A DNA stretch of 64,000 nt from an uncultured Actinomycetota bacterium (GCA_963803925.1 CAWDOM010000013.1:3065-67064), one strand, 5' to 3'. Counted from the first letter of the stretch, positions 40,524-61,769 are shown. A program made the numbers and translations. Notes: generated by a model not told the origin, from the letters alone.

Positions 40524-41170
40524 GCCCCATCACCGACCTATCGGCGCCGCCCCCGGTGGGCGAGGGCCCCTCTCCCGATCGGGCCGGGCTGCTGGCCGAG
40601 CGGACGTTCGTGCAGGTGCGCTTCGGCGGCACCGGCGAGCAAGGGGTGGTCCTCGTCGGCGTGGTGCTCGCTATGGCGGCGACGCGAGACCACCGCTACG
40701 TGGTACAGACGCAGACGTACGGCCTCGGTGCTCGGGGTGGCTACGGGCACAGCGACGTGATCATCTCCGACAAGCCCATCGACTACCCGGAGCTGCAGGC
40801 CGCCGATCTGCTCGTCACCCTGTCGCAAGACGCCGCCGACGGGTATTCTGACCTGCTGACGCTATCGAGCGTCTTCATCTACGACTCGGAGGAAGTGACG
40901 TCGCCGCCGGCCTTCACGGGCGCGGTTTTCGGCATCCCGTTCACGCGGATGGCCCGCGAAGCGGTCGGTGAGGTCGACGCGGCTCCCAACGTGCTGACCC
41001 TCGGCGCGGTGGTAGCCATAACCGGCGTGGTGTCGGTGGAGTCGCTTGAGAAGGCGGTACTGGCAACTATCCCGCCCGGCACCCGGGAGGCGAACGGTCT
41101 GGCGCTGAAGCTGGGCCTGGCCCTCGATGCTGAGGCGTGGCGAGTCACGAGGAGTCGCACATGCTTGTAG
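40520..41170 (+). CDS. 2-oxoacid:ferredoxin oxidoreductase gamma subunit (copy 2)
   Basis: VRFGGTGEQGVVLVG is present, with an ATGA overlap with korB2. Confidence 0.8.
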   Translation: MSPITDLSAPPPVGEGPSPDRAGLLAERTFVQVRFGGTGEQGVVLVGVVLAMAATRDHRYVVQTQTYGLGARGGYGHSDVIISDKPIDYPELQAADLLVTLSQDAADGYSDLLTLSSVFIYDSEEVTSPPAFTGAVFGIPFTRMAREAVGEVDAAPNVLTLGAVVAITGVVSVESLEKAVLATIPPGTREANGLALKLGLALDAEAWRVTRSRTCL

Positions 41171-41940
41171 CTGGTCTCGACGTTGGAGCGAAGAACGTGC
41201 ACGCCGTGCTCATGAAGAACGGAGCGGTAGTGGCTCGGGCGGCGGTGTCTTCGGGGTTCGACCATGAGGAATCTGCCGAACGGGGTTTGCGCGAAGCGGC
41301 GTCGCTTGCCGGGGCAGAACGGGGCGATATAACGGTCGTCGCGGCCACCGGCGCCGGCCGCAAAGCTCTCGCATTCGCCGGTCGGAAGCCCACCGAGATC
41401 GCCGCCGACGCTCGGGGGGCCACGTACCTCTACCCCACGGCCCGCACGGTGATCGACGTCGGCGCCGACGAGGCAAGGGCTATCCGTCTGGCTGCCAACG
41501 GCAAGGTGGTCGATTTCGCTATCAACGAGAAGTGCGCGGCGGGTGCCGGGGCCTTCGTGGAGGCGATGAGCCGCGCCCTCGAGATGCCGCTCGCCGCCTT
41601 TGCCGCGGCTTCGCTCGAGTCCACTCAGACGATTCCCATGAACGCGCAGTGCACGGTCTTCGCCGAATCGGAAGTGGTGAGTCTCATCCACGCCAACACC
41701 GCGCCGGCCGACATCGCCCGAGCCGTGCACGACGCCATGGCCAGCCGGGTGTCGACTATGGTGCGCCGCGTCGGAGTCGAGGACCCGGTGGTTCTTGGGG
41801 GCGGAGCGGCACTCAACGTCGGTTTCGTCACCGCCCTGTCGAGCGCGCTCGGTGGTGCGGAGGTGCACGTGCTGCCCGATGCTGAGTATCTCGGCGCCTT
41901 GGGAGCGGCTCTCATCGCCGCTGAGACGGCTCAGGGCTGA
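41161..41940 (+). CDS. BadF/BadG/BcrA/BcrD-type ATPase (BcrD/HgdC-like electron-activating subunit)
   Basis: MLVAGLDVGAKN (acetate/sugar-kinase fold), cluster-ligand contexts NEKCAAGAG and AQCTVFAESE, 260 aa. Confidence 0.75.
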   Translation: MLVAGLDVGAKNVHAVLMKNGAVVARAAVSSGFDHEESAERGLREAASLAGAERGDITVVAATGAGRKALAFAGRKPTEIAADARGATYLYPTARTVIDVGADEARAIRLAANGKVVDFAINEKCAAGAGAFVEAMSRALEMPLAAFAAASLESTQTIPMNAQCTVFAESEVVSLIHANTAPADIARAVHDAMASRVSTMVRRVGVEDPVVLGGGAALNVGFVTALSSALGGAEVHVLPDAEYLGALGAALIAAETAQG

Positions 41941-42003: not shown

Positions 42004-43893
42004 CTATAGAGCCTCGCTCATGCGGTAGGCCTTAGCCTGCACCTCGTACATCTCGGCGTAACGGCCTCCGAGAGCCATGAGCTCAGCGTGGTTGCCGCTT
42101 TCGATGATCCGTCCGTCGTCGAAGATGTGGATGCGGTCGGCCGCTCGCACGGTAGAGAAGCGGTGACTGATGAGCACCACCGCCCGGCCCTGGGCCAACT
42201 GCCGTATGTGCTCGAAGACTTCCCACTCAGCCCGCGGGTCGAGGGAACTCGTGGGCTCGTCGAGCACGAGGAGTTGCGCGTCGCGCACGAACGCCCGGGC
42301 GAGTGCGATCTTCTGCCACTCGCCGACACTGAGCTCCTCGCCTTCCTCGAACCACTTGCCCAGCATGGTGTCGTAGCCGTCGCGGAGACCAAGGATGGCT
42401 TCGTGGACGCGGGCATCGCGGGCCGCTTCCCCGATGGCCGGATCGTCGGGCGCCAGCTGCACGTTCCCCAGCCGGATATTCTCCCGCGCGCTCAGCTGGT
42501 ATTTCGCGAAGTCCTGGAAGATCACGCTGAGGTTGGCGCGCAGATCGACGGGGTCGAAGTGCCGCAGATCGACGCCATCGAGAGTGATGGAGCCGGCCGA
42601 AGGGTCGTACAGCCGGCATAGCAGCTTAACGAGTGTGGTTTTGCCCGAGCCGTTCGCGCCCACCAAAGCGGTTATCTCTCCCGGACTGATGGTGAGCGAG
42701 ACTCCCTTGAGGGCCGTCCGCTCGGTCTCGGGGTAGCTGAAGTCGACGTTCTCGTAGCGCACGCCCTGGCGCAGAGGGCTCGGAACCGCGGCGGGCTCGG
42801 CGGGAACGGCGACGCGTGGTCGTAGCGCCATGAACTGCTCATAGTAGGTGAGAAAGAGATTGTCTTCGTAGAGCGATGTCAGGCCCCGAAGAACCGCCTG
42901 CAGTGAGCCGAGGCTCGTCTGGAAGGCCTGATAGTACGCGACAACGAGGCCGACGGAGATGCTGCCTTCGACGGCGCGCCACGCGATGTAGGCGAAGGTG
43001 CCGAATACCGCGAGCACGGCGGCGACGCCGGCGCCAAGCTCGGCGAGCGACCGCCGGCCTGTGAGACTGAGGAGCTCATGTCGCAACTGGGCGCGGAGGT
43101 CGCGATACCAGGCTCTGAAGCGGTCTCCGAGAGCGAAGAGCCGCACCTCCTTAGCGTAGGCGCTATCGGTGAGCAGCCAATGAGCGTAGTACGCCTGCCG
43201 CTCCATCTCGGTGCGCCTCGTCTGCCAGGCGAACAGCTTCTTCGAGTAGAGAAGCCGGACCACGCCCCCTGGCACCGCCGCGCAGAGGACGATGAGTCCT
43301 ATCACCCAGTGGAGCGTCAGCAGGAGGCCGGCCATGGACAGCACCGTGACGAGCGCCTGCCCGGTCGTTGTGAGATTGCGCACGATGCTCGTCGGGCGGA
43401 ACGGCGCCTCCTGTTGGGCCCGGTAGAGCGCGTCGTGGTAGTGGGAGTTCTCGTAGTACTCGAGGTCGACGGCTATCGACTGGGAATGGATGACATCCAT
43501 GACGTGGTCGGTGACCGTACGGCCGAGTGCCTCGTCGACCATTGTCGAAAGGGAGCGGAGTATCGCGGTCACCAGCCCGATCGCGGCCGCCAAGCCGATG
43601 AGTATGGCCACATGCCTGAAGGCGGCGCCGCGGTCGGCCGCGGCTACCCCATCGGCCACCCCGTCGACGATGAGCTTGAGCATCCAGACGGCGGCCAACG
43701 GCAAGAGACCCGAAACCACCGTGATGACGGTGCTCGCGACGGTCCACCCGGGCGCTACCTTCCAGACGAGCTTCAGGGCTCGCCCCAGTCGTGCCAGGTC
43801 TCTGATCCTCGGTCTGTGGGTCTCTACAGCCAAACAGGACTCCCCAGCCTCGACGTGCTCCTTCTGCACACTCGCGGCAGCCGGGTGTAACAT
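42004..43893 (-). CDS. ABC exporter, fused permease + ATPase (type I exporter fold)
   Basis: Six TM helices then Walker A GANGSGKTT, signature LSVGEWQKIALARA and Walker B LLVLDEPTSSLD. It is divergent from the RiPP-like cassette. The start may be 43962. Confidence 0.8.
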   Translation of the reverse strand: MLHPAAASVQKEHVEAGESCLAVETHRPRIRDLARLGRALKLVWKVAPGWTVASTVITVVSGLLPLAAVWMLKLIVDGVADGVAAADRGAAFRHVAILIGLAAAIGLVTAILRSLSTMVDEALGRTVTDHVMDVIHSQSIAVDLEYYENSHYHDALYRAQQEAPFRPTSIVRNLTTTGQALVTVLSMAGLLLTLHWVIGLIVLCAAVPGGVVRLLYSKKLFAWQTRRTEMERQAYYAHWLLTDSAYAKEVRLFALGDRFRAWYRDLRAQLRHELLSLTGRRSLAELGAGVAAVLAVFGTFAYIAWRAVEGSISVGLVVAYYQAFQTSLGSLQAVLRGLTSLYEDNLFLTYYEQFMALRPRVAVPAEPAAVPSPLRQGVRYENVDFSYPETERTALKGVSLTISPGEITALVGANGSGKTTLVKLLCRLYDPSAGSITLDGVDLRHFDPVDLRANLSVIFQDFAKYQLSARENIRLGNVQLAPDDPAIGEAARDARVHEAILGLRDGYDTMLGKWFEEGEELSVGEWQKIALARAFVRDAQLLVLDEPTSSLDPRAEWEVFEHIRQLAQGRAVVLISHRFSTVRAADRIHIFDDGRIIESGNHAELMALGGRYAEMYEVQAKAYRMSEAL

Positions 43894-43935
43894 CTCGCGA
43901 CGTGACCGCGCGCAACGGGCGCCCAGGAGAGGCAC

Positions 43936-44874
43936 TTGCAAGTGCATGTACGCCACTTCCAAATCGCCGGCATGACCATCCGGGTGGAGAGCGATCTACC
44001 TGTGACCGGCTCCACCTTCAGTACCGCCCTGCAGTCTTTCGAGACCCAGACGTCCGGCGACGACACAATCGTCGTACGCCATCATTTCCTGGTGCCTGCC
44101 CCGATTCCTGGTTTTGTCCCGGGCGACGGCATGAAGCAGGTGTACCGCAAGGCGCCGTGGGCCATCTACCATACCAGCGGTGGTTGGCTGTACCGAGGCA
44201 TCGGCGAGGAACTCGCCGACCCTCCGCTGGGGTTGGTCGCTCAGTTCGCCGACGACTACCGGGTAGGCGACGTCTACAGTACCGGCCCCTACGCTGATGT
44301 CTGGTCACGAGGCGGCGTGCCGTCGCTCACTCTCTTTTCCACCGACCAGATACTGCTCGCCCGGCTGCTGGCCGACCGGCAGGGCTTGCTGCTGCACTCG
44401 GCGGGTGTGTCGATAGACGGCCACGGTCTTCTCTTCGCGGGGCACTCAGACGCCGGCAAGTCGACGACAGCTCACCTCCTTCGCACCAGGCTCGGCTCTC
44501 GCGCCACTGTGCTGTGCGACGACCGCAACGCGGCGCGATGGTGGCCGCGGGGATTCGGGGGTGGCCCTCCGGGCTTCTACGCGCACGGAACCTGGAGCCA
44601 CGGCGACGTACCCCTGGTTTCACCTGAGCCGGCGGGCCTGCGGGCCATCCTCTTTCTCGAGCAGGCCGCGGTGAACGAGCTGGTTCCGATGATCGACCGG
44701 CGGGAAATCACGCACAGGCTCCTTGCCACATTGATCAAGCCGCTGGCGACCGCCGACTGGTGGGAGAAAGAACTGGACGTGCTCCAAGCTCTCACGGCCG
44801 CTGTGCCGTGCTACACGATGCGTTTCGACACGAGCGGGGCGATCGTCGAGCAGCTGGAGGCCCTGGTTCGATGA
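43936..44874 (+). CDS. HPr-kinase-related P-loop protein (ScmC/HprK-rel-like)
   Basis: LLLHSAGVSIDGHGLLFAGHSDAGKSTTA matches the HprK C-terminal domain P-loop pattern. 312 aa. Confidence 0.7.
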   Translation: MQVHVRHFQIAGMTIRVESDLPVTGSTFSTALQSFETQTSGDDTIVVRHHFLVPAPIPGFVPGDGMKQVYRKAPWAIYHTSGGWLYRGIGEELADPPLGLVAQFADDYRVGDVYSTGPYADVWSRGGVPSLTLFSTDQILLARLLADRQGLLLHSAGVSIDGHGLLFAGHSDAGKSTTAHLLRTRLGSRATVLCDDRNAARWWPRGFGGGPPGFYAHGTWSHGDVPLVSPEPAGLRAILFLEQAAVNELVPMIDRREITHRLLATLIKPLATADWWEKELDVLQALTAAVPCYTMRFDTSGAIVEQLEALVR

Positions 44875-45974
44875 GCGACTACGTGCGCCGCGTCGACGAG
44901 TTGCCGTGCTCCCGAGCGGGTCTTCGCCGGCTCGACCTGGAGCTCACCGAACGGTGCGACAACGATTGCATCCACTGCTGCATCAATCTGCCGGCCGGCG
45001 ATCGAGTGGCCGAGGCCCGCGAAATGCCGGCCGAGCGGGTGATGGACGTTCTGCGGCAGGCGACCGACCTGGACTGCCTCGAGGTCACCTTCACGGGAGG
45101 CGAGCCCCTGCTACGGCCCGACTTCGCGGAGATCTACGAGTATGCCCGCCGGCTTGGCTTGAAGGTGCTCGTCTTCACCAATGCGAGGCGCATCACGCCG
45201 CGTATCGCCGCGCTACTGGCCGAGATGCCGCCGCTGGCGCCGGTCGAGGTGAGCGTGTATGGCATGTGTGAGGAATCGTACGAAGCCGTGACCCGCGCCA
45301 AGGGGTCTTTCGCGGAATTCCGGCAAGGGGTCGCGCTACTGCTGGAGCACGAAGTGCCGTTCGTGGTCAAGAGCGTTCTGCTGCCCCCCAACCGAGGCGA
45401 GTTGGACATGTTCGAGTCCTGGGCCCGCACGATTCCCTCGATGGACAAGTCCCCCAGTTGCACCGTGGTGCTCGATCTGCGCAACCACCGCGACGATCCT
45501 GTCAAGAACCGGGCTATTCGAGCTCTACGAAACTCCCCCGAGGAGATCCTGGCGGTACTGGCTCGCGACGACGCGCGTTATCGAGCCGAGATGGCGGACT
45601 ACGCGGCAAAATTCATGCATGTGCCCGGAGACAAGCTCTTCTCGTGTGGGGTGGGCCATAGCCTAAGCGTCGATGCCTACGGGCGGGCACAGCCCTGCAT
45701 GGGCCTGCGTGCGCCGGAACTCATCGTCGACCTGGCGCACGCGACGCTTGCAGCGGCGCTGGCGCGGTTCGCCGAGCTGGCGAGTCTTCGCGCCACCTCT
45801 CCGGAGTACCTTGCCCGGTGCGCGAGCTGCGCGCTCTATGGCTTGTGCGAACAGTGCCCCGCCAAGTCGTGGGCCGAGAACGGTACGCTCGATTCCCCGG
45901 TTGAGTACCTGTGCGAGGTCGCGCACGCCCAGTCGGCGTACCTCGGTTGGGCGCCCGGCGGTGAGAAGCAATGA
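44871..45974 (+). CDS. Radical SAM/SPASM peptide-maturase-like enzyme 1 (PqqE-like)
   Basis: CDNDCIHC (CxxxCxxC), FTGGEPLL, and SPASM Cys motifs CGVGHSLSVDAYGRAQPC and CASCALYGLCEQCP. ATGA overlap with the upstream gene. Confidence 0.85.
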   Translation: MSDYVRRVDELPCSRAGLRRLDLELTERCDNDCIHCCINLPAGDRVAEAREMPAERVMDVLRQATDLDCLEVTFTGGEPLLRPDFAEIYEYARRLGLKVLVFTNARRITPRIAALLAEMPPLAPVEVSVYGMCEESYEAVTRAKGSFAEFRQGVALLLEHEVPFVVKSVLLPPNRGELDMFESWARTIPSMDKSPSCTVVLDLRNHRDDPVKNRAIRALRNSPEEILAVLARDDARYRAEMADYAAKFMHVPGDKLFSCGVGHSLSVDAYGRAQPCMGLRAPELIVDLAHATLAAALARFAELASLRATSPEYLARCASCALYGLCEQCPAKSWAENGTLDSPVEYLCEVAHAQSAYLGWAPGGEKQ

Positions 45975-45999
45975 GTCTGCCCGGCGCTGTCGAATACCT

Positions 46000-46027
46000 T
46001 TGCATGCGGCCACGCAAGGGCTATATT
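46000..46027 (+). promoter_or_regulatory. Sigma70-like promoter in front of the candidate precursor ORF
   Basis: TTGCAT (46000-46005), 16-nt spacer, TATATT (46022-46027). An AT-rich hexamer pair is rare in this GC-rich background. Confidence 0.4.
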
Positions 46028-46076
46028 CTGCACAGCGTCAAGGCGGGAGCGCGCGAGTAGCATTGGAGGTCTGACC

Positions 46077-46256
46077 ATGAACTCGCAGAAGCCGCGGTGG
46101 GAGAAGCCGGAGATCATCGTTCTGGTGCGGGGCAGGCCCGAAGAGGCCGTGCTCGCCGGCTGCAAGACGAAGTACAGCGGCATAGGCCAGTTCAGCGCTA
46201 CCGACTGCACCAAGAAAGCCGACGGCAGGAGTTGCCCGCAGGCTACACACTCGTAG
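46077..46256 (+). CDS. Candidate RiPP precursor peptide, 59 aa (below the 60-aa ORF-track cutoff)
   Basis: GGAGG (46065-46069) lies 7 nt before the ATG. Hand translation: MNSQKPRWEKPEIIVLVRGRPEEAVLAGCKTKYSGIGQFSATDCTKKADGRSCPQATHS, then TAG. It sits between rSAM1 and the PqqD gene. Confidence 0.6.
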   Translation: MNSQKPRWEKPEIIVLVRGRPEEAVLAGCKTKYSGIGQFSATDCTKKADGRSCPQATHS

Positions 46257-46293
46257 ACGGTCGGGTTCGCCGACAGAGTCACAAGGCAGGGCA

Positions 46294-46599
46294 ATGAGTA
46301 CCACTATCAACTTGGATATAGTCTGCTCTCCCGCCGATGCCGTCGTCTTTCGCGAGATCGAGGGCGAGATCATCATCATTCCGTTGGTGAGCGGCATCGG
46401 CGACACCGACGACGAGCTCTATTCGCTGAACGACTGCGGGCGAGCTATCTGGCAGAAGCTCGACGGCCTTCGGACACTCGAGCAGGTGGCCGTGGCACTC
46501 GAGTCCGAGTACGACGCACCCGCCGACGACCTGAGGAGCGACGTAGCGGGCTTCGTGGCTGAGTTGGTCGGACGAGGGCTCCTGTCAGTCAAGGCCTAG
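46294..46599 (+). CDS. PqqD-family peptide chaperone (RiPP recognition element)
   Basis: 101 aa. VVFREIEGEIIIIPL...LNDCGRAIWQKLDG.RTLEQVAVALESEYD...DVAGFVAELVGRGLL is the typical PqqD pattern. Confidence 0.8.
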   Translation: MSTTINLDIVCSPADAVVFREIEGEIIIIPLVSGIGDTDDELYSLNDCGRAIWQKLDGLRTLEQVAVALESEYDAPADDLRSDVAGFVAELVGRGLLSVKA

Positions 46600-46605
46600 C
46601 ACCGA

Positions 46606-47631
46606 GTGCAAGAAGAAATGCCCACTCGCTACTTGGCGGGCGGTGGCGATCTACCGCTCTCAAACGAGGTACAGCTCGATCTGCTTCGAACCATGATGCA
46701 GCGGGAACTGTCGCTCAGGATACGCGTGCGCGGCTCTAGCATGACCCCTCTGATCCGCGGAGGTGATGTCGTGACCGTTTCGCCCATGGGTGACCGTCCA
46801 CCGCAGGTCGGCGAAGTGGTCGCGTGTGTCCTGCCGGGCTCCGGCAGACTGGCTCTGCACCGGGTCGTCGGACAGGGGGAGCAAGGATGGTCGGTGCGCG
46901 GAGACAGCTGCCGCGAGAGTGACGGCGTCGTGGCGACCGACTCGATCTTGGGCAGAGTCGTACGCGTTGAACGCAACCGGCGCGAAGTGAGCTTTGGCAC
47001 GGGCAAGGCCGCGAGAGGCATCGCCTTGCTCAGCCGCGCCGGCGGCCTTTGGCTGCTCCTGGGGCCTCGGCGCCTGGGCTATCGCGCCGTGTCGGTCGTG
47101 CGACAAGGCGTGCAGAGAGTCCCGACCTATCGGCGGCTTGGCGCGCGATTTGGGAGACTGGTGAGCATCGAGGAGGCCGGCCCCGCCGACGTCAGCAGGG
47201 CGCTGGGGGCGATCGGTCATGCCGGTGGAGGACGGCCCGCGCGCGTGGCTTCGACCGGTCACGCGACGAGCTGGGTCGCGAAACGGCGCGGCCGAGTCGT
47301 CGGCTTCGTTCACGTCGATGCGACCGGGGATCAGAGCTCCGGCCGGAGCGCCTACACGCTGTGTAACTTGTGGGTCAAAGGACGTTACCGCGGTCTGGGT
47401 ATTGGCGAGGCTTTGGCGACCCGGGCGCTCGCGTACGCGGCCGCCCAGGGAGCGACCTCGATGAGACTGGCCGTCGACGATGACAGCGCTATCGCCAGGA
47501 ACCTCTTTCACAAGCTCGGGTTCGCCGGTCTCGCCGAGCCGGAGTCCGACCTTCGATGGGAGCAGGGGGAGCAGGCCGGTGAACCCAAGAGGATCGTTCT
47601 CGAACTCGGCCTTGACTCGAAGGAGCGTTGA
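46606..47631 (+). CDS. S26-type signal-peptidase-like domain fused to a GNAT acetyltransferase domain
   Basis: N-terminal half: VRGSSMTPLIRGGDVV (Ser box), LALHRVVG (His where bacterial SPase I has Lys) and VRGDSCRESDG. C-terminal half: VKGRYRGLGIGEALATRAL...NLFHKLGF (GNAT motif A). Confidence 0.65.
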   Translation: MQEEMPTRYLAGGGDLPLSNEVQLDLLRTMMQRELSLRIRVRGSSMTPLIRGGDVVTVSPMGDRPPQVGEVVACVLPGSGRLALHRVVGQGEQGWSVRGDSCRESDGVVATDSILGRVVRVERNRREVSFGTGKAARGIALLSRAGGLWLLLGPRRLGYRAVSVVRQGVQRVPTYRRLGARFGRLVSIEEAGPADVSRALGAIGHAGGGRPARVASTGHATSWVAKRRGRVVGFVHVDATGDQSSGRSAYTLCNLWVKGRYRGLGIGEALATRALAYAAAQGATSMRLAVDDDSAIARNLFHKLGFAGLAEPESDLRWEQGEQAGEPKRIVLELGLDSKER

Positions 47632-48758
47632 GAGTGGAGATCCAGGACTTTCCGCTCTGGGAGAAGCTCCAGGCCTCCGATGTCCCCGCCTCTTTCGATA
47701 TTGAGATCACCGCGCGCTGCAACAACGACTGCCGGCACTGTTACATCAACCTGCCGGCCGGCGACACGGTGGCCCAAACCCGCGAGCTGAGCGCCGGCGA
47801 GATCGTCGACATAGCCAGGCAGGCTGTGGACATGGGCTGTGTGTGGTGCCTGCTCACCGGCGGAGAACCTCTCCTGCGTGACGACTTCGCTGAGATATAC
47901 ACGAGACTGAGGCGGTTCGGCCTGCTGGTCGGCGTCTTCACCAACGCCTGTCTGGTGCGGCCGGAACACGTGGAACTCTTCCGCAGACATCCACCGCGCG
48001 ACGTCGAGATCACGGTCTACGGCGCCACCCGGCAGACCTACGAGGCCGTTACGCGCCGTCCCGGCTCGTGGGATGCCTTCAACCGGGGCCTGGACCTTCT
48101 CGTCGCCGGTGGAGTGAAGGTGCGCCTCAAAGCCATGGCGCTGCGCACGAACGTGCGCGAGTTCGATCAAGTCTCCGAGTTCTGCCGGGCGCTTACGCGT
48201 GACTGCTACCGATTCGACTCGGCCCTGCACCTCCGCTTCGATGGTGACCAGAGGCGCAACACCGAGATACGCGCGGAACGGCTGACCCCGGAGGAGACCG
48301 CCGCCTGCGATCGAGCCGACGAGAAGCGCTACACAGCATTGCTGAGCTGTGGCGCCGGCAGCAAGACCCGTAGCACCCGTCCGCTGCACGGTGGGCATCG
48401 CCTCTTCTCGTGCGGAGTCGGCGGCACGAGTTTCAGTGTCGGCTACGACGGCACGTTCAGGCTCTGTCCCTCGCTGTGGCACCCCGGGACCACATACGAT
48501 CTGCGCACAGGCACGCTGAGCCAGGCATGGCGCGAGTGGCGTCCGCGCATACGCGACCTGCGCTGCGACGAAACCGGGTCTGCAATGAGGTGTGGCTCGT
48601 GCGAACTGGCGAATCTCTGCTTGTGGTGCCCTGCCCATGCCTCGCTCGAGACCGGAAACCTCGAGGGTCACGTCGAATACTTCTGCCAGGTCGCCCACGC
48701 GCGCGCGGCGGCGCTGCGAGCGAGCAATCCTGAGGTGGGAGACGGAGGGGGTCAGTGA
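47628..48758 (+). CDS. Radical SAM/SPASM peptide-maturase-like enzyme 2 (paralog of enzyme 1)
   Basis: CNNDCRHC, LTGGEPLL, and SPASM motifs CGVGGTSFSVGYDGTFRLC and CGSCELANLCLWCP. The start is TTG 47628 or GTG 47634 (AGGAG lies 8 nt upstream). Confidence 0.85.
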   Translation: MRVEIQDFPLWEKLQASDVPASFDIEITARCNNDCRHCYINLPAGDTVAQTRELSAGEIVDIARQAVDMGCVWCLLTGGEPLLRDDFAEIYTRLRRFGLLVGVFTNACLVRPEHVELFRRHPPRDVEITVYGATRQTYEAVTRRPGSWDAFNRGLDLLVAGGVKVRLKAMALRTNVREFDQVSEFCRALTRDCYRFDSALHLRFDGDQRRNTEIRAERLTPEETAACDRADEKRYTALLSCGAGSKTRSTRPLHGGHRLFSCGVGGTSFSVGYDGTFRLCPSLWHPGTTYDLRTGTLSQAWREWRPRIRDLRCDETGSAMRCGSCELANLCLWCPAHASLETGNLEGHVEYFCQVAHARAAALRASNPEVGDGGGQ

Positions 48759-49969
48759 CAGAGGAGACCTCGAGAACCGTGGGTGGTTGGGAGCGGGCGC
48801 CCGGCCCGTCTTCCGAGACCCGCGCCCTGCTTGCTTGCGCCCGTGCGGTGCTCGACACGGCTCTGACCGGCCGCGCGCACGCGGCGCTCGCCGAATGCGA
48901 CGATGAAGTCCGGCTCTCTGAGGCCGCCGCCGCTCATGGCATGGTCGGGCACCTCAACCGCCTGGTCACGTCCTCGCGCGCCGAGAGCAACGGAGGTCTG
49001 CGTGGCCGCATCTCCGGCATGCAGAGGTCCCTTGCCGAACGCAATCTGCGGCAGACCGCTCAGCTGCTGCGTCTCCTGGGGAGGCTGGAGGGGGCAGGTA
49101 TCGTAGCCGTGCCCTACAAGGGGCCGGCCTGGGCCGAGAGGTTCTACGGCGATCTCACGATGCGCGCCTGGTCGGATCTCGACGTGTTCGTGACTCACGC
49201 CCAGGTGGCGGAAGCGCGCGCCTTGCTCCTCGCGAACGGGTTCAGCGACCACGGCACCTTCAACGAGCGAATAATGGCCAAGAAGAGTCGCGGTTGGGGA
49301 GAGATCGCGCTCTGGGCGACGGCTGGAGATGTCCAACTCGAACTACACTGGGAGGCCACGGTGGGCGTGGGGGCCCGGTCGCTGCGCGCCGAGGCCATCA
49401 TGGCGGGGGCGAAGAAACTGACGCTGCTTGGGCGTGAGGTCATGACTCCGTCGGACGTGGACGCGCTGCTTCTCACGTGCCTGAACGGAACAAAGGACCA
49501 TTGGGCGGGTATCGAGGGGCTGCTATGCGTCGCACTTCAGGTTCAGCGGTTTCCCGCGGCCGATTGGCCCCTCGTGCTCGCCGGGGCGAAGAAGGCCCGC
49601 TGCCTTCGCCGGACTCTTATCGCGGTGGCTCACACTTGCCGGGTGTTCGACCTCGAGACGCCGCCGCAGGTGGCGGCCGCCGTCGCGCGCGACGGGGCCG
49701 CCCGGCGGCTGCTGCGGGGCCTGACGCCGGCGAATCTCGAGCGTGGCAAGGTCGCTTCGCATGAGCCCCGGCTGGATATCTTGGCCTGGAGATTCGCCAG
49801 CGAGGACTCGTTCGTGGCAGCTCTGCTCTACGCCGCGACAAGGTTTCTGCGCCCTGGTCCCGAAGACTGGGAATGGCTTGCGCTTCCCAAAGGCGCCGGT
49901 TGGCTGTATCCGGTCCTTCGACCGGCCCGGCTGGCCGCGAAGTGGGCAAAGCGCCTTGTAGTACACTAG
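48755..49969 (+). CDS. NTP_transf_5-type (uncharacterised) nucleotidyltransferase family protein
   Basis: PYKGPAWAERFYGDLTMRAWSDLDVFV...ARALLLANGF...LELHWE fits the family pattern. GTGA overlap with rSAM2. Confidence 0.6.
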   Translation: MTEETSRTVGGWERAPGPSSETRALLACARAVLDTALTGRAHAALAECDDEVRLSEAAAAHGMVGHLNRLVTSSRAESNGGLRGRISGMQRSLAERNLRQTAQLLRLLGRLEGAGIVAVPYKGPAWAERFYGDLTMRAWSDLDVFVTHAQVAEARALLLANGFSDHGTFNERIMAKKSRGWGEIALWATAGDVQLELHWEATVGVGARSLRAEAIMAGAKKLTLLGREVMTPSDVDALLLTCLNGTKDHWAGIEGLLCVALQVQRFPAADWPLVLAGAKKARCLRRTLIAVAHTCRVFDLETPPQVAAAVARDGAARRLLRGLTPANLERGKVASHEPRLDILAWRFASEDSFVAALLYAATRFLRPGPEDWEWLALPKGAGWLYPVLRPARLAAKWAKRLVVH

Positions 49970-50009
49970 CCTGCGGCACTAGGCGCGCCGGGGCCCAGGG
50001 CGGGAGAAT

Positions 50010-51620
50010 ATGGTCTACAAGAACATCGAAAGGCAGGACACCGTCCAGCTCGAGGATTATGTACGCATAATCCGCGAAAGAGCCTGGGTTATCGCGCTCA
50101 GCGTCGTCATCGTGATCGTCGTCGCGCTCTACATGTCGTTCACCACCACTCCGCTCTACACCACGTCGGCCCGGCTCGTCTACCAGAAGAACGATCTCGA
50201 GCTGGCGGTCTCGGGCTTCGGCCTGAACACCTACGACTACGACAAAGACCGCACCATCGCCACGGCGGTGGCGGCCATCAGAAACAGCCAGACCCTCGCT
50301 GAAGCGGTCAAGGCGGAACTTGGCGACGGAACCGACAAGGAAGCCCCCGGCCTCATGGGCATGGTGAGTGTCAGCACCAGCGAGGGGAGCGACCTGATCG
50401 ACATCTCGGCCGTGAGTACCGAGCCCAGCGAAGCCGCCAAGGTCGCCAACGCCTACGCGCGCGAGTTCATCGCATTCAGGCAGAACGCCGACAGGGCCAC
50501 GGTCGCCGCCGCCCGCGACAAGGTGAAGGCGCAGCTCGAGAGTCTTTCCGAGGAGGATCTCCGAGGCGAGTACGGCTTGATGCTCCGAGAGAAGCTCGAG
50601 ACCCTTGGTATTTTGGAGGCCATGCAGGACGGCCGCTTCACTTTGATGCGCGAAGCCGCCGAGCCGGGCAGCCCGTACACTCCACAGACGCGGCGCAACA
50701 TCATCCTCGCCGTGGTGGTGGGACTGGTGTTGGGAGTCGGCCTCGCCTTCCTGGTGGAATACCTCGACAAACGCATCAAAGACGAGAAGGGTCTCGAACG
50801 CGCGAGCGGGCTTCCGGTGCTGGCGTCGGTGCCCGCGGTGGGCGGCAAGTGGAAGACCGCCAAGAAAGGCAAGCGCTCGGCTGAGGTCATCGGTTTCGAG
50901 GGCTCGAGTTCCGTTCTGCTCGAATCGTTCCGCACGTTGCGTTCAAGCCTGCAGTACTTCGAGACCGAGGGAGGGCCGCGCACGCTCCTCGTCACGAGTG
51001 GTCTGCCACAGGAGGGCAAGACGGTCACCACCGTCAACCTGGCCATCAGCCTGGCTCTCTCGGGGCAGCGAGCCATCGTCCTCGAGGCCGACCTGCGCAA
51101 GCCCATGATTCATCGGTATCTCAACCTCGACAACAAAGTGGGTCTCTCGAGCGTGCTGGCGGGCCAGTCTTCCATCGCCGGGGCCATGCAATTGGTGCTC
51201 ATGGAAGACCTCTTGCCCGAGTCGACACGAAAGGTGCACGGAGAGGGCACCGATGCCGGTGTGATACGCAAGAACCTCTACTGTGTCACTTCCGGACCGC
51301 AGCCGCCCAACCCTGCCGAGTTGCTCGCTTCCACGCGCATGGCCAACGTCATCAAAGAGCTGAGACAGCTCTGTGACTTCCTCCTCATCGACACTCCCCC
51401 TGTGCTCCCGGTCTCAGATGCTCTAGCATTGGCAGCCGAAGCCGATGCCGTCATCGTGACGGCGAGGCTCCATCACAGCACACGCGAGGAGATGAACCAG
51501 ATGCGGAGCGTGCTCGACCGGGCCGGAGTGCGGGTGATAGGCGTGGTCGCGGGCGGTGTGAAGACAAGTCATGGCTACTACTACAAGCGTGGCTACAATT
51601 ACGGGTACGGTTATCAATAG
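50010..51620 (+). CDS. Polysaccharide co-polymerase / BY-kinase fusion (Wzz domain + CpsD-like tyrosine autokinase)
   Basis: N-terminal Wzz with 2 TM helices, Walker A-like SGLPQEGKT, LLIDTPP, and a C-terminal Tyr cluster HGYYYKRGYNYGYGYQ. Confidence 0.85.
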   Translation: MVYKNIERQDTVQLEDYVRIIRERAWVIALSVVIVIVVALYMSFTTTPLYTTSARLVYQKNDLELAVSGFGLNTYDYDKDRTIATAVAAIRNSQTLAEAVKAELGDGTDKEAPGLMGMVSVSTSEGSDLIDISAVSTEPSEAAKVANAYAREFIAFRQNADRATVAAARDKVKAQLESLSEEDLRGEYGLMLREKLETLGILEAMQDGRFTLMREAAEPGSPYTPQTRRNIILAVVVGLVLGVGLAFLVEYLDKRIKDEKGLERASGLPVLASVPAVGGKWKTAKKGKRSAEVIGFEGSSSVLLESFRTLRSSLQYFETEGGPRTLLVTSGLPQEGKTVTTVNLAISLALSGQRAIVLEADLRKPMIHRYLNLDNKVGLSSVLAGQSSIAGAMQLVLMEDLLPESTRKVHGEGTDAGVIRKNLYCVTSGPQPPNPAELLASTRMANVIKELRQLCDFLLIDTPPVLPVSDALALAAEADAVIVTARLHHSTREEMNQMRSVLDRAGVRVIGVVAGGVKTSHGYYYKRGYNYGYGYQ

Positions 51621-51624
51621 AGAC

Positions 51625-52566
51625 ATGACCGAACAACGCGAGTATTGGCGATGGAGCGAAAGAAGTTACCAGGCTCCTGATATAGATTGGCGAAACGCCG
51701 CGGCGATCACCGTCGGAGTCGACGTGGGTTCGGTGAGCTCAGAGGCCGTGCTGCTGGCCGATGGCAAGCTCCTCTCATATAATTCGATTCGCACGGGATC
51801 TTCGAGCCCCGACAGCGCTGTGCGCGCATTCAGGGGCGCCGCGGAGCCGCTCGCGCTGACGCTCGACGACGTGGCCTATGCCGTCGGTACAGGCTACGGC
51901 CGGGTGAACGTTCCGTTCGCCGATCGCACCATCACCGAGATCGCCTGTCACGCCCGGGGCGCCAACGCCATGGTTGGGCCGGCGGTGCACACCATTCTCG
52001 ACATGGGTGGCCAGGACTGTAAGGTGATTCGCTGCGACGAGCGTGGCAAGGTGCTGAACTTCATCATGAACGACAAGTGCGCGGCCGGTACCGGACGGGG
52101 CATGGAAGTCATCGCCGACGTGCTGTCGGTGCCCATCGAGGATATCGGTTCGCGATCGTTCGATATCGACGAGGAACCCCCGCCGGTGAGCAACGTCTGC
52201 ACCGTTTTCGCCAAATCGGAGGCGACGTCGCTGCTGAGGGCGGGCTGGAGTGTCAACCGGGTGCTCGCGGCTTACTGCGGGGCGATGGCCCAGCGAGTGG
52301 CGGGACTCATCGAGCGCATGCAGGTCGAGCGCGAATTCTTCATAACCGGTGGCATTGCGAAGAACATCGGAGTGACCCGTCGCATTGAGCGGCTCATCGG
52401 CGTCGAGGCGATTCGGCTTCCGGCCGATTCGGCGCTCGACCCGCAGATAGCGGGCGCATACGGGGCGGCGCTCTTTGCCCACTCGCTGCACAAGAAGGCC
52501 GAGAAGACGGCTGCCGCCTCGGGCGCGACTGCCGCCGGCGCCGGCTCCACGGCCGCCGCCGAATAG
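51625..52566 (+). CDS. BadF/BadG/BcrA/BcrD-type ATPase (BcrA-like, with N-terminal extension and Ala-rich tail)
   Basis: ITVGVDVGSVSS, MGGQDCKVI, NDKCAAGTGRG and SNVCTVFAKSE are present. ATG 51625 follows the BY-kinase stop. Confidence 0.75.
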   Translation: MTEQREYWRWSERSYQAPDIDWRNAAAITVGVDVGSVSSEAVLLADGKLLSYNSIRTGSSSPDSAVRAFRGAAEPLALTLDDVAYAVGTGYGRVNVPFADRTITEIACHARGANAMVGPAVHTILDMGGQDCKVIRCDERGKVLNFIMNDKCAAGTGRGMEVIADVLSVPIEDIGSRSFDIDEEPPPVSNVCTVFAKSEATSLLRAGWSVNRVLAAYCGAMAQRVAGLIERMQVEREFFITGGIAKNIGVTRRIERLIGVEAIRLPADSALDPQIAGAYGAALFAHSLHKKAEKTAAASGATAAGAGSTAAAE

Positions 52567-56208: not shown

Positions 56209-59200
56209 TCATCCCACCGCCAAGTGGGATATCTCAGCCAATAGGGGCACAGCGCCCACGAAGATGTGGCCGGTCCGTCCGTCGATCGACAGCCAATCAC
56301 CCGCCTTCAACTCCACTCCGGCGAGGCGCGCGATGCCCTGGTGCTCGAGCACCTCGAGGCCACGGCAGTCGACCACCGCGGTCTTGCCGAGGCGTTTCGC
56401 CGTGACCGCCGCGTGTGAAGTGGCCCCGCCACGGGCGGTCAGCAACCCCGCGACGCGGGTGATCATGGCGATGTCCTCGGGCACGGTGTCGGGGCGCAGC
56501 AACACGATGCTCTCGTGAGCCGAAACGGCGAGGAGGGCCTCGATCTGCTGCATGTTGATGGCGACCCGGCCCGAGAAGGCGCCGCCCGATACCCCCATGC
56601 CTACGCCGACAGGAGCCCCGAACCGCGGGGACGCGGGGTCGAAGAACGGAGCCTTGTCTCGTTGCTCATGCACCATCGCCCGCTTCTGGAGGATGTAGAC
56701 ATCCTTGCCCGAGGCCGACTCGAAGGTGAACTCGATTTCTTGAGGATCGTACTCTCGTTTGCCGACCAGATCGCGAGCCACTTCGTACAGGGCGCGGTAA
56801 ACGTCGGGGTAGTCTTTCTCCAAAGAATGCTCGAGCCCTCGGTAGGTGGGGCTGCCGAGCCGCTGGGCTTCAGAGATAGGCCATGGATACACGAGTCCGC
56901 CCACCAGGTCCTCGCCCTGGCTGCGCACGGTGAAGTCCCCGAACAGCCTGACCTGGCTGCTGTAGGGCTCGAGCGGGTTGCGCGTGAACGTGACCCCCGA
57001 ACCCGACTCCCGACTGAGGTTGCCGAAGACCATGCGCTGCACCACCACGGCGGTGCCCCATTCGGCGGCGACGCCCAGGTAGCGGCGGTAGAGCTTGGCT
57101 TCGTCGGCATCCCAGGAGTCGAGCACCTTGCGCACACAAGCGACTATCTGGCGGAAGGGGTCGTCGATGAAGCGCACCCCTTGCTGGCGCGCCCGGACCT
57201 TGTAGGCGAGCGCCAATTCTCGCATGACCCCCGGTGGGAAATCCAGCTTGCGCTCTATGCCGTAGCGCGCCTTGAATTCAGTCATGATCGCGTCGAAGAA
57301 GTCGCGCTCGATGCCCGACGACATAGCCCAAGACTGCAAGAAGCGCCGGTATGAGTCCCAGGCCGCCCACTCGAAGCCCGGCTTGCGCGACAGCGACTCG
57401 GCGAGTCGGTCGTTGAGGCCCACGTCGACAAAGGTGGCCATGAGGCCCGGCATGGAGATGGCGGCGCCCGACCGTACCGACATGGTGAGGAGCCGCTTTG
57501 TGTCGCCAAGGTAGAGGCCGGTCTCCTTCTGTAGGTGGGCGACGGCCTTGCGGATGCGCTCGAGGGTATCGTCGTAGAGCGGTTTGTAAGCCATGGCGGG
57601 CAGTGAACTGAACAGCTCCGTCGAGAGGATGAAGCCGTGCGGTACCTGGTGGCCGTAGAGGGCCATCTGTTTGAGACCGAGACCTTTGAAGCCGAGGGTC
57701 ATCTGGTCGTCCACCCCGGGCCGGGCCTGGTGGATCGGCGACACAAGGCGCTCGGGGTCGTAGTTCATCATGCGGGTGAGGGCGTGGTTGCTGAGCCGGC
57801 CCGTGAGGGTGGATATCTGGCGGAGCATGGCCGACACGTACCGGTCGAGGGCCTGCATGCCGAGGGCCGAGACCAGCACCTCACGCAGGACCATCTCGGC
57901 GACGGCGTCGAGCGACATGCACCGAACCTCACACTGTCGCGGATCGTGTTCGAGCACGGTGTGCAACACCTGGTCGTGGCTCAAGATCGAGTTGCGGCTG
58001 AGTTCGGTCACCGAGCCTACGATGAACTGGAAGACGTTGCGGTACTGGTGGAAGGTGAAGTTGTGACTGCCGAAGCCCGACTCGAGCAGGCGTAGGTTGG
58101 CGGCCAGGCTCCGCGAGTCTACGCCGTCCGTGCCGAGCGCTCGTTCGAAGCGGCGGATCGCAGCTGCCATGCGCCGCAATGAATCACGAGTGACGTAGGA
58201 GTCGGCCCCGTGCGCGACCAGATCATCGAGCAGACGGGCCACGAGGTTCTCCACCCTGAAAGACAGACCCAGCGCATCGAACTTGGGCTCCGTGTACGTG
58301 CCGTACATGGAGGGGATGCCGGCCGCGATGTGACGTTTCTGGTAGATGTTCTCGACCGCCGTCGAGGGCCCCGGACCGAGGATGATAGTCTGCAACTCCT
58401 CGAGGATGGTCAGGGCGATATCGAGCAAGTGATCGCGGGAGTTGGAGTCAGGCTCCTTCTGCCAGGCTGTCAGGGCCTTGGCGAAGCGGGCCCGGGTCGC
58501 GGCCTCAAGGCGCAGATGCCCGGCGACCGCTGTTCCGACGCCGTCGGCCGAAAGTGAATACTTCTGAGTGAGTAGCTGGCGGGTGCGAACCATGAGGGCC
58601 ACCCGCCGGTGGCCCCGGGGCTGGCCGTTGCCTGCGGCGGCGCCGGGCAACTCCGCGAGCAGGTCCTCGAGCTGCTGAGGCGACATCTTCGAAAGCCTCT
58701 CGAGAAGCATGGCGATCGCTTCGGGCGACAGCGGTTGCGTTTCGCTCTCCTGAGCCGCCTCAGAAGCCTGCTCGTTCGTAGCCTCGGGCGCCTCGCGTTC
58801 GATCAGGCGGTCCCAGAGGGCGAGGAGAACGTCGTGGGGCTCTTCGGCCCAATCCCGCTCCCTGCTCACGGCGGCAAGGGTGTTTGGCGACAGATACGCC
58901 TGCAAGCCTCGGATGTCGAGGGTCACCCAGTACGTCAGCACCGCCGTCGAGAAGTCGATGAGTCGGTTCGACGACTCCGCGTGCGATTGCTTGCGGATGA
59001 AATGCATCAAGGTGTCGTGCCGCTGGCATATCTCGTCGAGTTCGGTCGAGACCGAGCGCAGCTCGCCTTCGGCGCCCACGTCGTTGAAGTACACAGGGAA
59101 CGCTCGCAGGAGCTGCTTCGCGACGAAGTAGATGGGTTTGATGTCGGCGTTCAGAAAGCGGGTGACGTCGCGCTGGAAGAGATCAGTGTCGGCGATGTAG

Positions 59201-60450: not shown

Positions 60451-61769
60451 CAGGCCTCGTTCTCGCCGCGCTCGGTCACCCGCGTCTCTTCGAACCCACC
60501 CTCCTTCGTGGATTGTTCGAGGGGTGTCAGGAGCACGCGGCAGATGCGCATGCCGTCGACCTCGAGCACGCGCGCGCGGAAATTGCCGATCTGAGCCTCG
60601 TCGCCGACGCGGGGTCTGCGCTGCAACTGCTCGAACACCCGCCCACCAAGAGTGGGAAAGCCTTCCTCGGGCACCTCGAGCCCGAGAGCCTCTTCGAGCT
60701 CGTCGACGCGCGCGGCGCCGTCGACCGAGTAGCCGCCGTTCTCCTGGGGCTCGATGAGGGGACCTTCGGAGTCGAACTCGTCTTGCATCTCGCCGATGAG
60801 TTCCTCGACGACGTCCTGGATGGTGACGATGCCGGCCGTGCCGCCGTGCTCGTCGACCACGATGGCGAGCGGGGTGCGCGTGCTCTGGAACCGCTGCAGC
60901 GCCACCTCGACGTTCGAGGTCTCGGCAATGAAGCCCACGGGGCGCAGCAACCGGCGGAGCGTGTTGCTGCGCGGCGCCCGATACAGGTCTTTCACGTGAA
61001 TGTACCCGAGAATGTTGTCGACGTCTTCTTCGTAGACCGGGTAGCGAGTGTGGTTGGTCTCGGCCACCTCGTCGATAGCCTGCGCCACGGTGTACGAGGT
61101 GGGCAGGGCAGCCATCTCTGTGCGCGGCACCATGATGTCGGTGACCGTTTGGTCGCCGAACGTCAAAGCCCGGCGCATGAGGGTCTGCTCGACCTCGTCG
61201 ATGTGCCCGACTTCCTGGCTCGCCTCGATGATCATGCGCAGCTCTTCCTCGGAATGGGCAAGCTCGCGCTCGGAAGCCGGTTGGATGTGGAAAAGGCTGA
61301 GCAGCCCGGTCGCTGAGATGTACATGAGCCAGGTGATAGGCCGGGTGACGAGGTAGAACCAACGGAGCGGTAGCGAGATCAGCATCGTCGACTTCTCCGC
61401 CTTGCGGATAGCCACCGACTTGGGCACCAACTCGCCGAAGATGATGGTGACGAAGGTCACGAAGACGAACGCCAGCACCGCCGCCGCGGTCTGGTTCATG
61501 GCGAGTCCGAAGATCCTCGAGAAGGCCGAGGCGCCGAGCCAGCCGAGGCCCAGGCTGGCGAGGGTGACACCCAACTGAGTCGCCGAGAGATATGCGTCGA
61601 GGTTCCCGATGATGTGCTCGGCTACTCGTGCCCAGCGTTTGCCTTCGGCGGCCAACTCGGCCACACGCGTATCGCGGATCTTGACGATCGCGAATTCGGC
61701 GATTACGAAGAACGCGTTCACCACCACGAGAAGGACGACGCCGATGACTTCGAGCGCTGTGGTGTTCAT
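60450..61769 (-). CDS. CNNM/DUF21 + CBS pair + CorC_HlyC hemolysin-family transporter-associated protein
   Basis: N-terminal 4 TM helices, CBS pair (DIMVPRTEM...), and C-terminal CorC domain. Confidence 0.85.
   Translation of the reverse strand: MNTTALEVIGVVLLVVVNAFFVIAEFAIVKIRDTRVAELAAEGKRWARVAEHIIGNLDAYLSATQLGVTLASLGLGWLGASAFSRIFGLAMNQTAAAVLAFVFVTFVTIIFGELVPKSVAIRKAEKSTMLISLPLRWFYLVTRPITWLMYISATGLLSLFHIQPASERELAHSEEELRMIIEASQEVGHIDEVEQTLMRRALTFGDQTVTDIMVPRTEMAALPTSYTVAQAIDEVAETNHTRYPVYEEDVDNILGYIHVKDLYRAPRSNTLRRLLRPVGFIAETSNVEVALQRFQSTRTPLAIVVDEHGGTAGIVTIQDVVEELIGEMQDEFDSEGPLIEPQENGGYSVDGAARVDELEEALGLEVPEEGFPTLGGRVFEQLQRRPRVGDEAQIGNFRARVLEVDGMRICRVLLTPLEQSTKEGGFEETRVTERGENEA

Follow-up and report, generated by a model that had tools for sequence, protein, structure and literature searches.

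Organization of the Cassette

The stretch of DNA considered here, hereafter the window, is 64,000 nucleotides long and comes from an uncultured Actinomycetota bacterium (GCA_963803925.1, CAWDOM010000013.1:3065-67064). Our subject is a compact gene cassette at positions 43936-49969 of the window, which an earlier note on this DNA had put forward as a candidate new system for making a peptide that is produced on ribosomes and modified after translation (RiPP), built around two radical S-adenosylmethionine (rSAM) enzymes of the SPASM type. The open reading frame (ORF) map places seven genes there, all in the same direction, with a divergent ABC gene at 42004-43893. The tight packing with ATGA and GTGA overlaps that had been described is directly visible at the junctions, with ATGA at 44871-44874 and GTGA at 48755-48758, and there is a further TTGA overlap at 47628-47631, where an alternative GTG start lies 3 nt past the upstream stop.

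All seven genes lie on the plus strand. The first (43936-44874) encodes an ScmC-family P-loop protein with a predicted fold like that of phosphoenolpyruvate carboxykinase (PEPCK) and HprK, and is followed by rSAM/SPASM enzyme 1 (44871-45974), whose ATG lies in the ATGA overlap. Next come a 59-residue precursor peptide, a discrete PqqD-type RiPP recognition element (RRE; 46294-46599; Pfam PqqD, 60.7 bits), and an ORF (46606-47631) in which an archaeal/endoplasmic reticulum (ER)-type signal-peptidase-I-like domain (46606-47013) is fused to a GNAT acetyltransferase domain (47248-47631; Acetyltransf_1, 56.5 bits). The set is completed by rSAM/SPASM enzyme 2 (47628-48758) and an NTP_transf_5 nucleotidyltransferase (48755-49969; PF14907, 122.3 bits), which starts with the GTG of the GTGA overlap. 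Pfam matches, sequence motifs and precomputed annotation bear out the domain assignments made earlier, and every ORF between 42004 and 51620 falls in a family other than the lasso cyclase or B-protein, in keeping with the earlier statement that neither is present.

A Conserved Precursor Family

The 59-residue ORF begins with an ATG, 7 nt upstream of which lies the Shine-Dalgarno sequence GGAGG. Its leader (residues 1-28, MNSQKPRWEKPEIIVLVRGRPEEAVLAG; 46077-46160, plus strand) contains a WxxPxL motif, and its core (residues 29-59, CKTKYSGIGQFSATDCTKKADGRSCPQATHS; 46161-46256, plus strand, including the stop codon) contains Cys29, Cys44 and Cys53 and ends in C-x5-Ser59, the boundary between the two presumably lying after residue 28. 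A scan of one genome per species returned at least 320 loci with related cassettes, 80 of which were fetched for comparison, their gene orders being obtained by tblastn with the window proteins. The recurrent order is a third rSAM gene where there is one, then the ScmC-like gene, rSAM1, precursor, PqqD, peptidase and rSAM2, frequently with an ABC exporter after them. A 68%-identical relative from a metagenome has gene-for-gene synteny with the window, and in it the 59-residue ORF was called independently. Recurrence of the order in this relative and across dozens of genomes shows that the genes did not come together by chance.

An iterated hidden Markov model (HMM) search of all small ORFs of the 80 loci brought up 105 peptides related to that of the window. 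Of the 48 loci for which 12 kb or more of sequence was available, 46 have such a peptide, in 1-10 copies each, so that the earlier proposal of this ORF as a candidate precursor withstood the comparison with homologous cassettes. The window peptide itself matches the family HMM with E = 9e-19, and when this one sequence was compared with 1.84 billion cluster representatives, 471 matched at E ≤ 1e-3, nearly all of them 50-90 residues long. The precursors match no curated model in Pfam or NCBIfam; the faint match of the family leaders to NF033524 (E about 0.2) is not significant.

The leaders of the family follow a near-invariant logo, KKxWxKPELIVLVRGxPEEAVLxxCK, in which W, P, E, C and K are conserved at 99-100%, L, L, R and L at 90-96%, and the W-x-x-P-x-L element at 93-100%. 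The distance from W to C is 21 residues in 89/96 family members, a small residue (G/A/T/S/V) directly precedes Cys-Lys in about 78% of leaders, and Leu occupies position -3 in 96%. The cores are hypervariable and rich in Gly, Ser, Thr and Asn, with Cys as the sole conserved residue type. Their C-terminus takes the form C-x5-[S/T], with the last Cys six residues before the end, in 79/96 and 115/142 family members, and a C-terminal Ser or Thr, the sole invariant hydroxyl of the core, is found in 93/96 and 137/142 (96-97%); the few members that end differently appear truncated or frameshifted. Judged by these patterns of conservation, the 59-residue ORF is a genuine precursor peptide of a conserved family, and the reading of the cassette as a RiPP cluster is strongly supported.

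The family also shows variation within single genomes. A Dehalococcoidia locus (L018, 10977-18612) holds ten precursor copies with differing cores beside a single set of enzymes, an arrangement like a natural combinatorial library. In more divergent cassettes the Trp of the leader motif is replaced by Tyr (KTYTKPKLVVV, KPYTSPKLVSI; L047 2132-4653/3575-3766, L069 3504-3719, and L052), and in the genome of L047 the main cassette has a Trp leader and the second, divergent cassette a Tyr leader. The ScmC-like proteins of the divergent cassettes L047, L035 and L060 are 25-27% identical to the window protein. This W/Y split between co-resident cassettes has a published parallel in RRE systems that occur together and tell W from Y apart.

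Radical-SAM Enzymes and Core Cysteines

The assignment of two rSAM/SPASM enzymes held. Both proteins match the Pfam Radical_SAM model (76.4 bits for 44871-45974 and 72.5 bits for 47628-48758) and carry the CxxxCxxC motif, as CDNDCIHC in enzyme 1 and CNNDCRHC in enzyme 2, together with a seven-Cys SPASM motif of the pattern C-x16-18-(G-x4-C)...C-x2-C-x5-C-x2-C...C; the Pfam SPASM model matches neither protein, though the seven-Cys pattern is complete. The two enzymes are 41% identical to each other, and each has its own orthologues in most loci (46-64% identical and in the same position for enzyme 1, 44-65% identical for enzyme 2). Their best NCBIfam and PDB matches are mixed, with StsB, SkfB, PqqE, MftC and ScmE/F standing beside AhbD, NirJ, BlsE and MoaA, all far below cutoff. 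For StsB the scores are 69.5 and 69.8 bits against a cutoff of 625, for AlbA 41.7 against 850 and for SkfB 38.9 against 300, and PapB is not among the best 25 NCBIfam families for either enzyme. PDB sequence searches likewise gave distant, mixed matches (BlsE, PqqE, SkfB, MoaA and DesII).

A typical cassette among the loci has three rSAM genes, and the window has two. The third gene, located upstream of the ScmC-like gene, forms its own orthologue group, with 53% identity between an actinomycete and a Chlorobiaceae genome and 26-32% identity to rSAM1 and rSAM2. It was not found anywhere in the 64-kb window, whose precursor core has three cysteines, and this coincidence is part of a wider pattern. 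Cores of the family carry three or four Cys. Where the third rSAM gene is present, 54/64 peptides have four Cys, the extra one lying in a C-x2-3-C pair before the tail, and where it is absent, 20/25 peptides have three. At the level of loci the table reads 35/3 versus 1/13 (Fisher p = 1.1e-8), in a test that makes no correction for ancestry shared among the loci. The commonest pattern is a Cys count equal to the number of rSAM enzymes plus one. The tracking of the fourth Cys by the third rSAM gene is the best available evidence that the rSAM enzymes act on the cysteines, and thioether crosslinks seem the most likely outcome of their chemistry. Five loci also have a DUF512-type rSAM protein as an optional neighbor (e.g., L049 12559-14163), which does not occur in the window.

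The ScmC-Type Protein and the C-Terminal Serine

The P-loop protein carries the precomputed Pfam annotation PF27840 "ScmC", as do all of its homologues among the matches listed (120), and a metagenome protein collection contains 592 ScmC-like homologues at E ≤ 1e-3. Against the NCBIfam ScmC model (TIGR04249) it scores 29.7 bits with a cutoff of 125, over residues 144-255 only, and it is also below cutoff for HprK_rel_A (TIGR04352; 15.7 against 200 bits), HprK_rel_B (TIGR04355; 22.7 against 200) and the HPr kinase model TIGR00679 (15.7 against 240). The motifs GHSxAGKST (GHSDAGKST in the window) and LCDDR are invariant in 27 ScmC-like homologues, the DD pair of the window protein being D195/D196. 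When the ScmC profile was compared with PDB sequences, the matches were confined to the P-loop and led to ABC ATPases, and HprK (1jb1) gave E = 0.22. The PEPCK fold group includes the catalytic domain of HPr kinase, and when an AlphaFold2 model built on 27 homologues, with a mean predicted local distance difference test (pLDDT) score of 90.6, was submitted to Foldseek, the best PDB matches were PEP carboxykinases (E = 4e-7). Going by this model and the invariant motifs, the protein is probably an ATP-dependent phosphotransferase.

We propose the C-terminal Ser/Thr of the precursor as its target because this is the sole invariant hydroxyl in the core. The kinases PsmK and PadeK phosphorylate a C-terminal Ser, PsmK depending on a DD pair, and in the pseudomycoidin pathway PsmN, an enzyme of the same kind of family as NTP_transf_5, places hexoses on the phospho-Ser and needs D134 and D136 (PMC6993621). 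The NTP_transf_5 protein of the window has the D-x-D motif (...SDLDVFV...). Clear orthologues occur only in actinobacterial relatives, and the gene is a minority accessory of the family.

The phosphorylation could also be transient. In this case, following the logic of class III/IV lanthipeptides, phosphate would be eliminated from the terminal Ser and the Cys six residues upstream would attack, closing a lanthionine-like ring at the C-terminus. The constant distance, noted above, from the last Cys to the Ser/Thr at the end fits such a ring, as does the frequent occurrence of one Cys more than there are rSAM enzymes. Elimination beside a free carboxylate is chemically unfavorable as a matter of general knowledge, however, and the Pfam and NCBIfam matches include no lyase or cyclase homologue in the cassette. 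NTP_transf_5 enzymes, moreover, act on a retained phosphate in pseudomycoidin (PMC6993621), and we consider this route very unlikely.

Predicted Recognition, Leader Removal, and N-Terminal Acetylation

The PqqD-type protein was found in 63/81 loci in a clustering that included the window. The W-x-x-P-x-L motif of the family leader is the same as the [Y/W]xxPx[LVIFA] motif that is bound by discrete RREs in lasso and linear polyphosphorylated peptide (LPP) systems, where the [Y/W]xxP element determines RRE specificity (PMC13381572).

The earlier description of the next protein as a fusion of an S26 peptidase with a GNAT domain was right as to the fusion and can be made more precise as to the peptidase, which is of the Ser-His-Asp (archaeal/ER, Sec11/SipW-like) kind of S26. 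The ORF matches Pfam Peptidase_S24 with 22.9 bits, just below the cutoff of 23.3, and the NCBIfam model sigpep_I_arch (TIGR02228) with 27.5 bits, below 51.85. The candidate catalytic residues Ser45, His85 and Asp100/Asp106 lie in SM.P, HR and GD...D motifs, the arrangement that characterizes S26B signal peptidase I, and in 54 homologues S45 is conserved at 94%, M46, P48, H85 and R86 at 100%, D100 at 98% and D106 at 88%. Sequence comparison with the PDB links the domain weakly to signal peptidase I (4me8) and also to SEC11C (7p2q); the Lys/His position of the alignment is occupied by His. LppS of the LPP pathway, with catalytic residues S29, H68 and D93, is a proven leader peptidase that cuts only when LppB presents the leader (PMC13381572), and by its conserved residues the window domain is the same kind of enzyme. 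From the sequence of the leader, cleavage probably takes place at VLAG|CK, with Leu at -3 and a small residue at -1.

An AlphaFold2 model of the whole peptidase-GNAT protein has a pLDDT of 77, and Foldseek matches to it are mostly GNAT proteins, among them the N-terminal acetyltransferases Naa60, Naa50 and RimI and the protein acetyltransferase HP0935. The GNAT domain is fused to the same enzyme that would generate the new N-terminus. The fusion is a minority accessory, seen in only 8/53 homologues of the loci.

The divergent exporter reported earlier is present on the minus strand at 42004-43893. It matches ABC_tran (114.7 bits) and ABC_membrane (30.4 bits), its best NCBIfam models are MsbA_rel and MsbA (both below cutoff), and it combines a transmembrane domain and an ATPase, without a C39 peptidase domain. 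Its start codon is uncertain, the ORF being open up to 43962. An ABC homologue adjoins many related cassettes, and the protein is the probable exporter of the product.

Comparison With Known Systems

The earlier note had likened the core of the cassette to SynChlorMet (SCM; ScmC/D/E/F), and this stands in part. Both combine PqqE-like rSAM/SPASM paralogues with a homologue of PqqD and a protein distantly related to HprK, and their taxonomic ranges are similar. That the cassette is a plain orthologous instance of SCM would account for the filing of the P-loop protein under PF27840 "ScmC", for the presence of Scm models among the top NCBIfam matches of four genes, and for taxa (syntrophs, Chlorobiaceae and methanogens) that echo the name. 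All four equivalog models nevertheless fall 4-6 times below their cutoffs on the window (in addition to ScmC, ScmD, TIGR04248, gives 33.9 of 100 bits, ScmE, TIGR04250, 67.0 and 66.7 of 400, and ScmF, TIGR04251, 70.9 and 68.8 of 400). The homologues from Chlorobiaceae, Chloroflexia and other groups, including the third rSAM enzyme, also fail the SCM equivalog models, TIGR04249 giving no match at E ≤ 1e-10 to the ScmC-like proteins of Chlorobiaceae and others. The window family moreover usually has three rSAM genes and a signal-peptidase-like gene; to our knowledge neither the third rSAM gene nor the peptidase is part of the SCM definition, and we know of no precursor identified for the SynChlorMet entry. 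We regard a plain SCM instance as doubtful. By these profile scores the window cassette is outside SCM as delimited by the NCBIfam equivalogs and inside the broader ScmC family of Pfam.

The earlier note had also held that a kinase paired with a nucleotidyltransferase is otherwise known from phosphorylated lasso-peptide clusters, a view that is now outdated, as the same set without a lasso cyclase has been described as LPP. The LPP clusters of Bacillota, lppA-K-B-S-D-N (Popov et al., Nat Commun 2026; PMC13381572), encode the SpI-like peptidase LppS, the discrete RRE LppB, the HprK-like kinase LppK, the uncharacterized NTP transferase LppN and the MsbA-like pump LppD, and LppK polyphosphorylates Ser3 of the core. 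All five functional types have counterparts in the window (a likeness of type), the ABC exporter corresponding to LppD; neither system has a lasso cyclase, and both have an aromatic-x-x-P leader motif. The LPP leader reads YxxPxVLxHQxIxFETxxS and that of the window family WxxPxLxVLxRxxPEExVLxxCK, however, so that only aromatic-x-x-P-x-hydrophobic is common to them. LPP cores are not patterned in Cys as those of the window family are, by its description LPP is confined to Bacillota, and the window family extends over many phyla and archaea, and the window kinase is far more diverged from HprK than the LPP kinase. The main text and supplementary tables of the LPP study give the clusters without rSAM enzymes, and the window operon has two rSAM/SPASM genes. 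Going by the leader motif and the extra modification enzymes, the window cassette is not a member of the LPP class; by analogy it would operate as a fusion of two pathways, one of the LPP and one of the SPASM rSAM kind.

The identity of the accessory set with that of LPP does raise the possibility that the product is an essentially linear phosphorylated and glycosylated peptide, on which the rSAM enzymes would carry out epimerization, C-C crosslinking or some chemistry on the C-x5-S tail. The homology of the rSAM enzymes is uninformative on this point, and the fixed tail could be the target of one of them. Such a product would not account for the correspondence between Cys count and rSAM gene count, nor for the conservation of no residue type other than Cys in a core that is hypervariable elsewhere, and we regard it as unlikely.

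Among lasso pathways, those of paeninodin and pseudomycoidin resemble the window in having an HprK-like DD kinase that acts on a conserved C-terminal Ser, followed by hexose addition by an enzyme of the NTP-transferase family (PMC6993621), and lasso leaders likewise have a W-type recognition motif. The region from 42 to 52 kb of the window differs from them in having neither an Asn-synthetase-like cyclase (C) nor a transglutaminase-like B2 protease, and its core is Cys-patterned and partnered with rSAM/SPASM enzymes. Sactipeptides and ranthipeptides (the StsB, SkfB, PapB and CteB systems) share with the window SPASM rSAM enzymes and Cys-bearing cores, and StsB and SkfB are the best peptide-maturase matches of the window enzymes. 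In those systems the RRE is an N-terminal domain of the enzyme, whereas in the window it is a separate protein, and neither class is known to feature a kinase, a protease resembling signal peptidase or a C-x5-S tail of fixed form.

The combination of a discrete PqqD-type RRE with PqqE-like SPASM rSAM enzymes, and a PqqA-like W-x-K-P leader, is shared with the PQQ (PqqA/D/E) and mycofactocin (MftA/B/C) pathways. Together with the ferredoxin/oxidoreductase neighborhood described below, it could be taken to mean that the cassette makes a peptide-derived redox cofactor and not a secreted peptide. Precursors of cofactors have invariant cores, though, and the core here is hypervariable and present in up to 10 copies per locus; a dedicated ABC exporter accompanies it, and the PqqE, PqqD and MftC models all remain below cutoff on the window, no PQQ or mycofactocin model reaching it. 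A cofactor pathway thus seems extremely improbable.

Literature searches for the accessory set with rSAM/SPASM enzymes, SynChlorMet, TIGR04249-51/ScmC, the leader strings, HprK with SPASM/rSAM RiPPs and NTP_transf_5/PF14907, in which subscription journals were largely uncovered, returned nothing on the cassette. Within that coverage no described product class joins the accessory set to rSAM/SPASM enzymes, as the earlier note had supposed. With the publication of LPP in 2026 the accessory set can less readily be called unprecedented: the set is already known, and what is undescribed in the literature searched is its combination with rSAM enzymes and the precursor family. The match to LPP suggests a portable tailoring module of kinase, signal peptidase and nucleotidyltransferase that is used in lasso, linear and rSAM pathways.

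Proposed Pathway

The interpretation that best fits these observations, to which we assign a probability of roughly 60%, is that the cassette is a RiPP cluster, a two-rSAM, three-Cys variant of a large uncharacterized ScmC-type family that combines crosslinking and phosphorylation. In this pathway the discrete PqqD protein would bind the leader motif W8-x-x-P11-x-I and present the peptide to the enzymes, and the two rSAM/SPASM enzymes would act on the core cysteines, most likely forming thioether crosslinks of the sactipeptide or ranthipeptide kind. The ScmC-type P-loop protein would use ATP to phosphorylate Ser59, as in paeninodin and pseudomycoidin, and NTP_transf_5 might decorate the phosphate, e.g., with a hexose, as PsmN does. 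The Sec11/SipW-like domain would then remove the leader at VLAG|CK, the fused GNAT domain would acetylate the new N-terminus of the core, and the MsbA-like pump would export the product, perhaps assisted in this, or in a coupling with the cell envelope, by the Wzc-like protein described below. We thus infer a Cys-crosslinked peptide with a phosphorylated and possibly glycosylated C-terminal Ser, freed of its leader and acetylated at its N-terminus.

Several points weigh against this interpretation. The sequence likeness of the ScmC-like protein to HprK is confined to the P-loop region. The rSAM enzymes are as near to AhbD, NirJ, BlsE and MoaA as to peptide maturases, so homology leaves their chemistry unfixed, and a strict rule of one enzyme per Cys had to be rejected, since loci with a single rSAM gene (L001, the second cassette of L047, and L069) have three-Cys peptides. 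In LPP the phosphosite is Ser3 of the core, not the C-terminus, and LppN was inactive in a heterologous host (PMC13381572). For every member of the family, the type of modification, the nature of the crosslink and the cleavage site are predictions read from sequence alone. These predictions are at least concrete, as the sequence rules specify an invariant leader, a relation between Cys count and rSAM count, and a C-x5-Ser end.

Distribution and a Possible Link to the Cell Envelope

The cassette spans more than a dozen phyla, its carriers being mostly uncultured anaerobes; a cultured one is Desulfobacter curvatus DSM 3379 (L064). Bacterial loci were found in Actinomycetota, Chloroflexota, Acidobacteriota (including Aminicenantes), Bacteroidota together with Chlorobiaceae, Omnitrophota, Planctomycetota, Desulfobacterota, Myxococcota, Spirochaetota, Bacillota, WOR-3 and Saganbacteria, and archaeal loci in the methanogens Methanoregula, Methanotrichaceae and Methanomicrobiales. 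The closest relatives of the window come from metagenome-assembled genomes of Actinomycetes, Thermoleophilia and Gaiellales. A precursor family of hundreds is thereby tied to a cassette that databases list merely as hypothetical or ScmC-like, and which occurs in at least 320 species-level genomes, methanogens among them, of organisms whose RiPP chemistry has hardly been explored.

The gene that follows the cassette (50010-51620, plus strand), starting 40 bp after NTP_transf_5, encodes a polysaccharide co-polymerase/tyrosine autokinase of the Wzc-like kind, whose C-terminus is rich in Tyr and which has Wzz, GNVR and AAA_31 domains and matches TIGR01007 with 134.9 bits, above the cutoff of 108. 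Wzc-like genes adjoin the cassette in 14/80 loci and in at least four gene orders (e.g., L044 6343-8622, L057 1349-2332, L080 6305-7384 and L056 16325-17842). In L044 the stop of the Wzc-like gene overlaps the start of the ScmC-like gene, with no other polysaccharide gene nearby. LPP and paeninodin clusters have also been found within capsule loci, the former often embedded there beside polysaccharide genes (PMC13381572). The repeated adjacency hints at a role in the cell envelope, and the Wzc-like protein is a possible accessory of the cassette. One may speculate that the product is an rSAM-crosslinked peptide with a sugar-extended phospho-Ser which, handled by the Wzc-type co-polymerase, primes or caps a cell-surface glycopolymer instead of acting as a free bacteriocin. 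We think this rather improbable; if true, the system would also be among the few RiPP systems common to bacteria and methanogenic archaea.

A few kilobases upstream of the cassette in L044 lie an IS66 transposase and a TnpB-like Orf2 (572-2574). This IS66 element, the only feature upstream of the overlapping Wzc-like and ScmC-like genes in L044, hints at mobility of the cassette. An optional neighbor in 13 loci is a class I S-adenosylmethionine methyltransferase (e.g., L055 12301-13104), which the window does not have.

Surroundings in the Window

The 9.6-kb block from the ABC gene to the Wzc-like gene (42004-51620) is flanked by paralogous BcrAD_BadFG ATPase genes (41137-41940 and 51571-52566), which belong to a cluster for 2-oxoacid:ferredoxin oxidoreductase and ferredoxin. 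The block looks as if it had been inserted between the paralogues, and the layout is the same in the 68%-identical relative. Rfam and tRNA scans of the whole window gave no matches. Further downstream, on the minus strand, a 1717-residue ORF (56209-61362) has no Pfam match in its first ~1260 residues, and Pfam matches (PPDK_N and the PEP-utilizing mobile domain) only in its last ~450. The first 6000 positions of the window have a GC content of 0.51-0.53, compared with 0.62-0.69 elsewhere, and their genes include a GspH-like pseudopilin, a LytS-type histidine kinase and a PpnN-like nucleosidase; this part may be foreign DNA or the result of an assembly join.

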